A stretch of 5,284 nt of DNA from Escherichia coli (lineage in GTDB: Bacteria; Pseudomonadota; Gammaproteobacteria; Enterobacterales; Enterobacteriaceae). Positions 2,374 through 5,284 of the stretch are shown here, piece after piece. The notes beneath the pieces were generated by a model. That model was not told the DNA's origin. It searched no databases and saw only the letters and a list, made by a program, of their open reading frames with translations. Location: NCBI RefSeq assembly GCF_036507355.1, contig NZ_AP027882.1, one strand, 5' to 3'. Each line of letters begins with the position of its first letter. Position 1 is the stretch's first letter. Made by a program: the position numbers and the translations under genes.

Positions 2374-3270
2374 TTGAGTAACGCCGCACTCGAACTATTC
2401 AACGAACGCTTGCCGCACAAGCCGTACTTTTCGGACGATTTGCACTTTGGTGTACGCATTGCCGGCAAGGAACGCGCCATTCTGGCGAAATACATCCAGT
2501 TCAATCAGCCTCATGCCATGTTCTGGCTGGGATTCGATGTTGATCGCGCCGGTGCCGCTATTGACTGGAGTGACCGCAATGCTCCCGCGCCCACACTGAC
2601 CATCACCAACCCCGAAAACGGACACGCGCATCTGCTGTACGCGCTAAAAACCTCGATACGCACAGCGCCGGACGGAAAAATGAAGCCGCTGCGCTACGCT
2701 GCCGCCGTGGAGAACGCGCTACGTAAAAAATTAGAGGCTGACGCGGGGTATTCAGGGTTAATCTGCAAAAATCCGAACCACAGGCACTGGAAAATTGCCG
2801 TGTGGCAGCCGGAACTCTACACACTGGACTGGCTGGCCGATTTCCTTGACCTGAACGCTGCGAACGATAAAGAAATCGTTGCCGACTACGGATTAGGCCG
2901 TAACTGCACCTTGTTCGACAAAACCCGAAAATGGGCTTATCGTGCTATTCGTCAGGGCTGGCCTGAGTATGGACAATGGATGCTAGCTTGTGTTGAAAGA
3001 GCTACAGCTTACAACATGCAGTTTTCAGCACCATTAGATGAAAAGGAGGTCATAAGTATAGCGAAGAGTATATCTAAATGGACATATTCTAAATTCACAC
3101 AGCAATCTTTCGATGAATATGTTAAGAAAACACACTCAGCTGAATGTCAGAGTATAAGAGGGCGCAAGAGCTCTGGCGGAGGGCGGCCAAAAATAAGATC
3201 TGAGGAGTGGGTCTCTCTAGGTATTAGTCGCGCTACGTGGTATAGGAAGCACTATAAAAATGAAAATTAA
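2374..3270 (+). CDS. rep: ColE2-type plasmid replication initiator (Rep, primase-like replicase with PriCT-like and C-terminal HTH regions)
   Basis: 298-aa ORF starting at TTG 2374, with an in-frame stop at 2359-2361 just upstream. Translation (..ERLPHKPYFSDD..FDVDRAGAAIDWSDRNAPAP..NGHAHLLYAL..YSGLICKNPNHRHW..GLGRNCTLFDKTRKWAYRAIRQGWP..) follows the conserved blocks of ColE2-family Rep as I recall them. C-terminus has a basic tract and an HTH-like WVSLGISRATWYRK. Base composition switches from GC-rich to AT-rich near 2950. Confidence 0.85.
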   Translation: MSNAALELFNERLPHKPYFSDDLHFGVRIAGKERAILAKYIQFNQPHAMFWLGFDVDRAGAAIDWSDRNAPAPTLTITNPENGHAHLLYALKTSIRTAPDGKMKPLRYAAAVENALRKKLEADAGYSGLICKNPNHRHWKIAVWQPELYTLDWLADFLDLNAANDKEIVADYGLGRNCTLFDKTRKWAYRAIRQGWPEYGQWMLACVERATAYNMQFSAPLDEKEVISIAKSISKWTYSKFTQQSFDEYVKKTHSAECQSIRGRKSSGGGRPKIRSEEWVSLGISRATWYRKHYKNEN

Positions 3271-3916
3271 GATGTATGTCTTGTCTTTGTTTTTTTTGTT
3301 TATACCAATAATTTTTTATTTTTCTGGTATTGATGATGTCTGGAACGTTTTTACCAAAGCTAATGGTTTTTGTGATGGCGTCAGTAATCGTATTGTCTGT
3401 ATAACAGGTAATATGGGCAACCAGCTATCTCTATCCGTGTCAAGGTTATGCGTTTGTATTTTTTTGGTCTTTTTGTGTGGCTATACTTACTGGTGGTATA
3501 AGAGACAGCTTTCATTTTTGGATAGGGGGATTACCTCTGCCGAAGTGGTTGTTGTTGGATGCGAAAAAGAGTCAACTGAGTATCTGTCATTTTTGTCAAC
3601 TTACATAATGCCCCTGGTTTTTACAGACTTAACAAAACCTTCAAATGTTTTCAATTTCATTTTTATTCTAGTTATTGTCGGATTTCTTCATATAAAAACA
3701 AGAAGGATTCATAGCAACCCAACGCTTTCATTGTTTGGTGTTTCTGCTTACAAAATTGACTATATAATCAGGGTTGATGGTCAGGATTCTGATATCACAA
3801 AAGGATTGATTGTCCTGTCGAAGGATGAGATATCTGTGAAAAGTGTAATTCGAATCATAAAAAAAGAAGACTACATTACATTCGCAAAATACATAAGGAA
3901 CGATTCAAATGGCTGA
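3260..3916 (+). CDS. Multi-pass inner-membrane protein, unknown function (about 4 predicted TM helices plus a roughly 70-aa soluble C-terminal domain)
   Basis: 218-aa AT-rich ORF. Hydrophobic segments at about aa 5-23, 57-80, 108-121 and 129-145, followed by a charged tail. ATG 3260 overlaps the rep stop (3268-3270); AGGAAG at 3244-3249. An alternative in-frame ATG is at 3272. Confidence 0.7.
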   Translation: MKIKMYVLSLFFLFIPIIFYFSGIDDVWNVFTKANGFCDGVSNRIVCITGNMGNQLSLSVSRLCVCIFLVFLCGYTYWWYKRQLSFLDRGITSAEVVVVGCEKESTEYLSFLSTYIMPLVFTDLTKPSNVFNFIFILVIVGFLHIKTRRIHSNPTLSLFGVSAYKIDYIIRVDGQDSDITKGLIVLSKDEISVKSVIRIIKKEDYITFAKYIRNDSNG

Positions 3917-5054
3917 AGAAAAACTGGATTTAAGCGAGCTCCATCATGACGCGCAGAAGGCCTCTGAGCTCTCATCCTATTACTCCCACTTCGATACAAA
4001 GGTAGAAGATTTTGACCTTCATGTATATTTTAACTTTAGGCATAAGATAAAGGGCGGTGATGGAAAGTACCGTTACGAATATCGGGTTGCAAAAATAGAT
4101 GATACTACTGTTCTGAAAGAATCAATCAAAGATAACGTGATAACAAAAACCCTTAATGATCTAAGTAGCGGTAGAGTTGCAGTATCTGATATAAAGCAGC
4201 TTAGTGATAGGGCTAGCACTATATCATTTTTAGAAGATGCAAAGTCATACAAAGATGAACAGATGTCTTTTTTGACAGGTATTATTTTTGATAAGGGATT
4301 TGGAGGTGATGGGGATATTCCTGTCGTCAATTTTGAGAAGTTTGATAAAATATCAAAGGTTGACTCAATTGTTTTTGTCTTAAGGAAAGGTGATAAATGT
4401 ATAACAATATACAAAAAACAGTATCCTATACAGAACCTGACCAAACAGAAAAATCATTACTTCTCATATAGCAAAGATACGTTATCAAAAATAGATGCTG
4501 ACATGATATCAATTGATGGAAAAGCCTCTATTGTTTTTGTTAAAGGTACTGCATATATCTATGATCAGGATGTTTTTGAGAAATTTTTCGGATACAAGAA
4601 GTGGATAAAAAAAGTTGCGGGCGAATTTGTTTCTGAAATGAAGCAAAAATTTTCATCGATAGTAGACTTTGGAAAAGTTACCGACAGGCTTGAAAAAGAA
4701 AGTGCTGATGCAGATGCCTTTTCAAGGAAACTGGCAAGAATATATAACAATAAAGATCTAAGAGCTTCCTTTAATACTGTTACACCAGAAAAAATCAGTG
4801 ATTTTTTAGTTGAAAATGAGTATTTCGCTAGATTGCTAAAGTACAAATCAGCGGAAGAACCTTTAGAAGTATCAACCCATGATCAGCAGGAAGCATTTAT
4901 ATTAATAGTTTCTGAGGGCGTTCTTCGCTCGCTTATTACTGGTTTTGATTATTTAAGCCCTGCCGCGAAAAGAAAAATTGCGACAGGCCAAACCGCGCAA
5001 AAACCTTCTTCTGTAGTAACTAGGATACCCTCCAGCGCATCTGACGCCGCCTAA
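3909..5054 (+). CDS. Hypothetical 381-aa soluble protein, unknown function; candidate effector or sensor partner of the upstream membrane protein
   Basis: Long AT-rich ORF with AAGGAA 8 nt upstream. ATG 3909 overlaps the upstream stop (3914-3916) in an ATGGCTGA junction. No Walker, HxH, nuclease or other motif recognisable by eye. Ends just upstream of a strong hairpin plus T-run. Confidence 0.8.
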   Translation: MAEEKLDLSELHHDAQKASELSSYYSHFDTKVEDFDLHVYFNFRHKIKGGDGKYRYEYRVAKIDDTTVLKESIKDNVITKTLNDLSSGRVAVSDIKQLSDRASTISFLEDAKSYKDEQMSFLTGIIFDKGFGGDGDIPVVNFEKFDKISKVDSIVFVLRKGDKCITIYKKQYPIQNLTKQKNHYFSYSKDTLSKIDADMISIDGKASIVFVKGTAYIYDQDVFEKFFGYKKWIKKVAGEFVSEMKQKFSSIVDFGKVTDRLEKESADADAFSRKLARIYNNKDLRASFNTVTPEKISDFLVENEYFARLLKYKSAEEPLEVSTHDQQEAFILIVSEGVLRSLITGFDYLSPAAKRKIATGQTAQKPSSVVTRIPSSASDAA

Positions 5055-5077
5055 CGAACGAGCTTGAGACAAAACAA

Positions 5078-5125
5078 CCTATATCAGATAACAGCCCTCT
5101 CTAAGAGAGGGCTGTTTTTTTTGCA
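5078..5125 (+). other. Candidate ColE2-type replication origin element
   Basis: TATCAGATAACAGC at about 5081-5094 matches the core of the ColE2 ori as I remember it (recall, not search), and is followed immediately by the hairpin and T-run. It lies about 1.8 kb downstream of rep, not directly after it. Confidence 0.4.
5091..5122 (+). terminator. Rho-independent terminator-like hairpin with T-run closing the rep-cargo operon
   Basis: Perfect inverted repeat ACAGCCCTCTC (5091-5101) / GAGAGGGCTGT (5105-5115) around a TAA loop, followed by eight T (5115-5122). Read directly from the sequence. Confidence 0.65.
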
Positions 5126-5139
5126 GCCAGCACAGAATC

Positions 5140-5245
5140 TGACATACTACACCATACCATAAGCCAGTACACACAGCGTCCCCTCTGCGAGGTGCCGTCT
5201 GTGACTGGTTCAGGGGGCTCGCCGCCCCCCGAAACCCCCGGCATC
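5140..5245 (-). other. ColE1 bom-like oriT with putative nic site (minus strand)
   Basis: Minus strand reads ..GAACCAGTCAC..(31 nt)..GTGTGTACTGGCTTATGGTATG.., resembling the pBR322/ColE1 bom region ..GACCCAGTCAC..GTGTATACTGGCTTAACTATG.. recalled from memory. Putative nic within CTGG/CTTA, between plus-strand 5163 and 5164. GC-rich inverted repeat GGGGGC / GCCCCC at 5213-5229 nearby. Confidence 0.5.
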
Positions 5246-5284
5246 CACTGCGAAAAATTCTCACGGTGGTGCGAATTTTTTCTT

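Follow-up and report, generated by a model that had tools for sequence, protein, structure and literature searches.

The question raised by this locus is what two AT-rich genes are doing between the replication gene of a small plasmid and its origin. The DNA analysed is a 5284-base stretch from Escherichia coli, called the window here, and the genes occupy positions 3260-5054. An earlier reading of the sequence alone (the sequence-only reading) described two overlapping AT-rich open reading frames (ORFs) placed between a ColE2-type rep gene and the origin, and suggested that they form an undescribed defence or accessory system with a likeness to Kiwa in its architecture. The coordinates, the overlaps and the low content of guanine plus cytosine (GC) are all as that reading described them. 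We find that the pair is very probably the Kiwa anti-phage system kwaA-kwaB, carried as the sole cargo of a 5284-bp ColE2-type plasmid that is MOBP-mobilisable. The features that define the locus are listed here; E denotes the expectation value, aa amino acids and nt nucleotides.

2374-3270, + strand: ColE2-type rep (primase-like), with matches to Pfam Replicase PF03090 (E 3.2e-45) and PriCT_1 (E 1.7e-10)
3260-3916, + strand: kwaA, 218 aa, predicted membrane sensor subunit of Kiwa
3909-5054, + strand: kwaB, 381 aa, predicted DNA-binding effector subunit of Kiwa, of a long-form clade
5065-5097, + strand: origin core TGAGACAAAACAACCTATATCAGATAACAGCCC, which bounds the cargo slot on the right and begins 11 nt past the kwaB stop

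Matches of the cargo genes to Kiwa

The 218-aa protein matches the PADLOC KwaA profile PDLC00211 with E 1.9e-121, residues 1-215 aligning to a model of 215 positions, and it also matches 12 further KwaA models. It scores 173.9 bits against the NCBIfam KwaA model NF041622, for which the cut-off is 100. The closest sequence in the PDB is KwaA 9mrg (E 1.8e-13), and all significant matches there are Kiwa chains. The local copy of Pfam-A gave no match at all for this protein; this is a limit of the library copy, because homologues of the protein carry the precomputed Pfam assignment PF28043 (KwaA).

The 381-aa protein matches the PADLOC KwaB profile PDLC00226 with E 1.2e-220, residues 1-381 aligning to a model of 380 positions. 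Residues 149-344 match Pfam PF16162 (KwaB, formerly DUF4868) across positions 2-186 of its 186, with E 7.4e-17. The closest PDB sequence is KwaB 9mrx (E 1.3e-7), and here too the significant matches are Kiwa chains only. One other protein, P0026 (3132 aa), gave 14 stretches of similarity to KwaB residues 48-113 with E 1e-16. It was rejected as a T/A/D/V/G-rich repeat protein, whose score is an artefact of summing over repeats, since single repeats reach only E 0.06-0.6 in BLASTP.

Structures were predicted for both proteins using AlphaFold2 (AF2) and compared using Foldseek with the PDB, in which the solved Kiwa structures are 9mrg, 9mrr, 9mrx, 9mtn and 9nyu. The sequence-only reading had expected a multi-pass membrane protein in first place. 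Hydropathy of the 218-aa protein shows three strong segments, and the AF2 model has four membrane helices (2-22, 60-89, 109-120 and 127-147) together with a C-terminal beta domain, with strands at 93-103 and 162-214. This predicted secondary structure agrees with the four membrane helices and beta-barrel published for KwaA. The best seven PDB matches to the model are all KwaA (probability 1.00, E 8e-10 to 8e-7), and the next match has E 0.18.

The KwaB model, built from an alignment of 91 sequences, has a predicted local distance difference test score (pLDDT) of 89.1 and a predicted template modelling score (pTM) of 0.85, and consists of a Rossmann-like N-terminal domain and the DUF4868 domain at the C-terminus. 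Its best six PDB matches are all KwaB (9nyu, 9mtn and 9mrx), with E 3e-15 to about 1e-15. The template modelling (TM) score, normalised to the target, is 0.73-0.76 over ~346 aligned columns, which extend across both domains, and the seventh match has E 0.46. Sequence profile and predicted fold thus agree that the 218-aa protein is a full-length homologue of KwaA, and the 381-aa protein one of KwaB.

The genes themselves are well supported. Their order is that of Kiwa, kwaA followed by kwaB, adjacent and in the same orientation. The rep stop TAA (3268-3270) is part of an 11-nt overlap with the kwaA start ATG (3260), and the kwaA stop TGA (3914-3916) is part of an 8-nt overlap with the kwaB start ATG (3909). 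The start codon of kwaA is backed by homologues starting MK(I/V)(K/R)MY. GC is 34.1% in kwaA and 36.0% in kwaB, compared with 58% in the mobilization genes and 47% in the whole window. AT-richness is shared by the final ~300 nt of rep, where GC at third codon positions is 0.35, against 0.63 in the first 600 nt. The longest stop-free run within 3260-5054 is 385 codons, which is far beyond chance for an AT-rich stretch: shuffles of the same bases (n=2000) gave a mean of 82, a standard deviation of 17 and a maximum of 192. Purifying selection is seen on both genes, with a proportion of non-synonymous to synonymous differences (pN/pS) of 0.19-0.39 against the homologues from Yersinia and from plasmid pMUT2, described below. 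This measure was used in place of the corresponding substitution rates (dN/dS) because synonymous sites are saturated, or close to it, in most of the comparisons.

The sequence-only reading was thus right to suspect a defence system, and the likeness to Kiwa is true homology and not analogy, as seen in PADLOC, NCBIfam, Pfam, PDB and fold matches. It had proposed profile searches, structure prediction with a fold search, and a survey of homologous plasmids. The profile searches (PADLOC, NCBIfam and Pfam) found KwaA and KwaB, the fold search with each protein returned solved Kiwa structures only, and the survey found the layout rep-kwaA-kwaB-ori again, for example in pMUT2. What does not hold is the idea that the system is undescribed: both proteins confidently match a characterised two-gene system, and PADLOC sub-family models match both from end to end. 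In RefSeq, the annotation of identical plasmids reads "kwaA: anti-phage protein KwaA" for the first gene and "Kiwa anti-phage protein KwaB-like domain-containing protein" for the second, and the Kiwa genes of pMUT2 have been published (PMC13226779, PMC10859263). The system is already known, with family models, annotation of identical plasmids and the plasmid architecture all on record.

The plasmid, its relatives and the rep-ori slot

The whole 5284-base window is 99.9% identical, over its full length, to the circular 5284-bp plasmids CP082432 and NZ_CP071392 from Salmonella enterica, and equally to the E. coli plasmid pLAO2 (NZ_OP242216, circular, 5284 bp). Three plasmids of Dickeya fangzhongdai match it at 99.0-99.2%. 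Since these are full-length matches to complete circular plasmids of 5284 bp, the window is an entire small plasmid. PLSDB types the identical plasmids as replicon Col(Ye4449) with a MOBP relaxase, and as mobilisable. The near-identical plasmid (99-100%) comes from S. enterica from turkey and from a food additive, from E. coli in human stool in Laos, and from D. fangzhongdai, a pear pathogen, in China. These hosts belong to two Enterobacterales families, and the plasmid has spread among them recently. A DNA search of 5426 complete E. coli genomes found kwaAB of the window in one (strain FLI21), and kwaAB of the pMUT2 type in Nissle and in Nissle-related or laboratory-derived strains only.

The closest well-studied relative is pMUT2 (NZ_CP023342.1) of E. 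coli Nissle 1917. It has Kiwa of the same clade, with a KwaB of 380 aa, a ColE2-type Rep, a MOBP mobilization module, the same 11-nt overlap between rep and kwaA, and the origin core after kwaB. Its Rep is 79% identical to that of the window, KwaA 57% and KwaB 54%. It differs in its nucleotide sequence, which has diverged by ~30% plasmid-wide, in the junction of the cargo genes, which are 2 nt apart in pMUT2 and overlap by 8 nt in the window, and at the place of the window's 78-aa ORF, which in pMUT2 is taken by a RelE/RelB toxin-antitoxin pair.

Two publications bear on the function of the pMUT2 system. Kiwa was identified by DefenseFinder and PADLOC as the only defence system predicted on the Nissle plasmids pMUT1 and pMUT2, and curing Nissle of both plasmids raised T4 plating about 1000-fold (PMC13226779), which is indirect evidence of protection. 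In an earlier engineering study, the gene called 'Hyp3', which is KwaA, could be deleted, and the stability of the plasmid then rose from 8.5 to 13 days, while deletion of the DUF4868 gene ('DUF', the kwaB homologue) reduced both plasmid stability and growth (PMC10859263). The latter effect fits with KwaA being harmful in the absence of KwaB, but could equally come from damage to the adjacent origin.

The clade to which the window KwaB belongs is small and divergent. A search of 1.84 billion cluster representatives gave only four with E <1e-30, and ordinary KwaB proteins (about 315 aa) align to the 381-aa protein at about 20-30% identity. The layout of rep, kwaA, kwaB, origin core and mobC was found in three further lineages: that of pMUT2; that of a 5016-bp plasmid from Proteus mirabilis, with a KwaA 36% identical; and that of a metagenome contig, with a KwaB 31% identical and a Rep 78% identical in its C-terminal half. 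The clade is also represented without rep, on a Yersinia enterocolitica chromosome, on a Photobacterium chromosome, and on an F-like Salmonella plasmid, where the pair is beside the tra genes. These copies retain relics of the slot. Upstream of kwaA is the final piece of rep, 25-50 nt long, and downstream of kwaB is the origin core, which Yersinia and Photobacterium have in full and the Salmonella plasmid in truncated form. In the coordinates of the three loci, the stretches concerned are:

L008, 5302-7197
L010, 5326-7167
L011, 5136-5252 and about 6960-6980

Relics of both the rep end and the origin around the chromosomal and F-like copies imply that these copies were derived from ColE2-type plasmids, and the clade appears to have spread from the slot of a small plasmid to chromosomes and to other replicons.

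The same slot carries different genes in other plasmids. Sister Col(Ye4449) plasmids have backbones ~90% identical to the window, but homology ends inside rep (about 3083-3141) and resumes at 5061-5065, so that the left breakpoint falls in the AT-rich last ~150-190 nt of rep. In five sisters (L002, L003, L015, L016 and L017) the slot holds Abi; DUF4231 with TIR; an AAA ATPase; a DEAD/DEAH helicase with a small ORF; and AIPR. The rep stop is overlapped by the first cargo gene in four of these five, by 4-20 nt. A further sister, pKAM576_5 (3944 bp), has merely ~0.6 kb in the slot. The origin core is kept in Col(Ye4449) plasmids whatever the cargo (Abi, TIR, Kiwa or others), and is present as well in pMUT2, in the Proteus plasmid and in the metagenome locus (L013). 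The slot looks like a site at which genes of defence type are exchanged. A search for repeats marking the insertion sites gave just short repeats at chance level and the terminator hairpin described below, and a literature search found nothing linking Col(Ye4449) to phage defence.

Similar inserts have been described before. ColE2 origins normally lie directly downstream of repA, and Rozhon et al. (2010) reported low-GC inserts of ~2 kb between repA and oriV in pHW66, from Rahnella, and in pUB6060 (PMC2831885). Both plasmids resemble the window in having an AT-rich insert of ~2 kb (36% GC in pHW66), an origin displaced downstream and a mobilization module of the ColE1 superfamily, and the two genes of the pHW66 insert are, like those of the window, apparently cistronic with repA (PMC2831885). 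The likeness to pHW66 is one of description and not of compared sequences, and its cargo differs, being a putative ATPase and a hypothetical protein. Unlike the cargo of the window, the inserts of pHW66 and pUB6060 were not read as defence genes (PMC2831885).

Taking the clade and the slot together, we tentatively suggest, with more doubt than belief, that the long-KwaB clade might be a plasmid-adapted lineage. Its ancestral home would be the ColE2-type rep-ori slot, with expression hard-wired to rep through ATGAAAATTAA, the conserved overlap of the rep stop and the kwaA start. It would have been exported from there together with its relics, and the slot would be a general hotspot in which small Col plasmids exchange one defence cargo for another, each attached to the rep stop codon.

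The remaining genes of the window were located by the ORF map, combined with family searches, and are as follows.

11-337: mobC
303-1862: MbeA-type relaxase
1015-1500: mbeB, nested within the relaxase gene
1561-1797: mbeD, nested within the relaxase gene
1959-2195: 78-aa ORF with no family assigned

The 78-aa ORF has no family match in NCBIfam, PHROGs, PADLOC or Pfam. It lies in a second AT-rich variable region (1808-2229), between mbeD and rep. In many sister plasmids this region is occupied by a RelE/ParE toxin and NadS, as it is by RelE/RelB in pMUT2. In two sisters (L002 and L018), a hypothetical ORF of 237 nt is annotated at the position corresponding to the 78-aa ORF, a correspondence of position and not of compared sequence. 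The stretch from the origin hairpin to mobC (5120-5284 and 1-10) is almost invariant across the sister plasmids, and is presumably where the origin of transfer (oriT) of the ColE1 superfamily is located.

Expression, mechanism and comparison with characterised Kiwa

Three further features bear on the expression of the cargo.

3244-3249, + strand: AGGAAG within rep, Shine-Dalgarno-like, 10 nt ahead of the kwaA ATG
3895-3900, + strand: AAGGAA within kwaA, Shine-Dalgarno-like, 8 nt ahead of the kwaB ATG
5090-5122, + strand: perfect 13-bp hairpin followed by a T-run, intrinsic-terminator-like, closing the rep-kwaA-kwaB unit and overlapping the origin core

The origin core at 5065-5097 is the putative ColE2-type replication origin, a function assigned from sequence. 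It presumably resembles the origin of ColE2-P9. The terminator scan gave 12 pairs at 5090-5122, seven of them G-C, with a loop of 3 and a T-run, and the inverted repeat is 100% complementary. The same scan found no terminator-like site on the + strand from rep to the end of kwaB. The AGGAAG stretch persists upstream of kwaA even in chromosomal copies without rep.

The simplest reading is that kwaAB is co-transcribed with rep, with translation either independent or coupled. This is plausible, given the conserved overlap and the lack of any predicted terminator between the two genes rep and kwaA. Two sites inside rep, each with 9/12 matches (2915-2943 and 3094-3123), were considered as a promoter belonging to kwaAB; nothing can be concluded from them, since seven promoter-like sites were found where shuffles led us to expect 8.6.

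Rfam gave no match within 3260-5054. Upstream of rep (2244-2363) there are two hits below threshold, one to PK-repBA on the + strand (35.8 bits, gathering threshold 45) and one to a CopA-like antisense RNA on the - strand (28.2 bits, gathering threshold 60). Control of rep translation by antisense RNA is known for ColE2-type replicons. The two hits are consistent with such control here, and do not demonstrate it.

The characterised Kiwa system of E. coli forms a fence-like supercomplex on the membrane, made of KwaA tetramers and KwaB dimers, which goes to sites of phage attachment and senses membrane disturbance (PMC11785009). KwaB binds DNA through DUF4868 with no sequence specificity, reduces phage replication and blocks late transcription (PMC11785009). 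The response is not abortive infection, as cells live on; KwaB is inhibited by lambda Gam; and conjugation was lowered more than twofold by four of five Kiwa systems tested (PMC11785009).

By homology, the divergent long-KwaB clade would share this mechanism. KwaA tetramers in the inner membrane would anchor KwaB dimers in a supercomplex, and the trigger would be a disturbance of the membrane, caused either by phage attachment and DNA ejection or by conjugation. KwaB would then grip the incoming DNA through its DUF4868 domain and, once bound, stall replication and late transcription with no killing of the cell. Expression of kwaAB would be from the rep transcript, each gene with its own ribosome-binding site, and the outcome would be that Kiwa shields the host of the plasmid from phage.

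The system of E. coli O55:H7 RM12579 / ECOR49 (Zhang, Todeschini et al., PMC11785009) has a KwaA of 195 aa and a KwaB of 315 aa. It shares with the window the gene order, the domain make-up of KwaA (four membrane helices and a cytoplasmic beta domain) and of KwaB, the fold over the full length and the F-x-R-K-L-A motif. This motif of KwaB contains the published DNA-contact residue R233 and is present in the window as R273-K274, nearly invariant in the alignment, which lends partial support to a shared mechanism. The window proteins are 17-24% identical to their RM12579/ECOR49 counterparts, and are longer. KwaB is longer by 66 aa, with an N-terminal extension (residues 1-35, including a helix at 15-26) and, relative to solved KwaB, an additional disordered C-terminal tail (~355-381, pLDDT about 50). 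KwaA is longer by 23 aa, and its residues 24-59, which lie between membrane helices 1 and 2 and contain three cysteines, fall outside the alignment to solved KwaA. Unlike the RM12579/ECOR49 system, that of the window is plasmid-borne and overlaps rep.

Weighing the alternatives

A number of points weigh against the assignment to Kiwa or against its role in defence. The NCBIfam KwaB model NF041623 scores the 381-aa protein at 92.4 bits, under its equivalog cut-off of 200, which explains the '-like' wording used by RefSeq; the low score reflects a divergent clade and not a lack of homology. Identity to solved KwaB is just 17-18%. Of the six DNA-contact residues that have been published, no more than two are identical (R233->R273 and D169->D203), in an alignment that is uncertain at this level of identity. 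N134 aligns with K170, and R142 (T178), R167 (S201) and K187 (D221) are not kept in the HMMER pairwise alignments, which are unreliable at 17-24% identity. The AF2 model of KwaA is of moderate confidence (pLDDT 73.6, TM 0.51-0.59), and H156 of KwaA, at the interface between KwaA and KwaB, is aligned to I170, again with uncertainty at such low identity. The five experimentally tested Kiwa systems of PMC11785009 (ECOR8, ECOR12, ECOR49, D9 and Ralstonia) are probably all outside the clade; not one of them could be placed in it. The curing of Nissle took away two entire plasmids, and not kwaAB alone (PMC13226779).

There is some chance, though we consider it rather low, that the system is Kiwa by descent and that its main selected role is competition between plasmids or maintenance of its own plasmid, not defence against phage. 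It would then restrict the entry of rival conjugative plasmids, and could act like an addiction module, which is possible because KwaA without KwaB harms the cell. The cut in conjugation of more than twofold by four of the five tested Kiwa systems (PMC11785009) agrees with a role in competition, but the reported effect is small. Maintenance would fit with the link between the system and rep on several small plasmid lineages, and with the pMUT2 deletions, in which loss of 'DUF' hurt stability and growth and loss of 'Hyp3' was tolerated (PMC10859263). Those deletions can be turned the other way: stability rose from 8.5 to 13 days when kwaA was removed, which makes the system a cost and not a stabiliser, and the kwaB deletion adjoins the origin core and may itself have disturbed replication, because in the window this core starts 11 nt past the stop codon. 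Neither role sits well with the presence of the same clade in chromosomes without rep, or with the rise of about 1000-fold in T4 plating after plasmid curing.

It is very improbable that kwaAB is instead part of plasmid replication or of copy-number control. The position of the genes between rep and the origin and their overlap with rep would suit such a role, which Rozhon et al. left open for the inserts of pHW66 and pUB6060 (PMC2831885), and a link to replication has been suggested for 'DUF' (PMC10859263). However, sister backbones that are ~90% identical hold unrelated genes in the slot, and pKAM576_5 has just ~0.6 kb there. The kwaAB pair is also found in chromosomes and in an F-like plasmid with no rep gene, and the two proteins are homologous to those of a defence system along their whole length.

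Hardly credible at all is that the pair is an undescribed system resembling Kiwa in architecture alone, for which one could cite the missing KwaA match in the local Pfam-A copy, the KwaB score under the NCBIfam equivalog cut-off and the 17-24% identity to solved Kiwa proteins, but which is opposed by end-to-end PADLOC matches for KwaA and KwaB, a KwaA score above the NCBIfam cut-off, the Pfam KwaB match over the full model, homologues carrying PF28043, fold searches giving Kiwa structures only, and the naming of the system by RefSeq and in two papers.

The reading of 3260-5054 as a Kiwa anti-phage system thus accounts best for the locus. The Kiwa cargo would explain what a "cryptic" 5.3-kb plasmid, widespread and recorded from Salmonella, E. 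coli and Dickeya, is for. Single defence genes would be swapped at the rep-ori slot in Col(Ye4449) and other ColE2-like plasmids. As a rare and divergent clade with a longer KwaB, this form of Kiwa could reveal which features of the system are essential. If the clade is indeed a plasmid-adapted lineage, as we tentatively suggest, then 'cryptic' Col plasmids would be dedicated, mobilisable carriers of defence.

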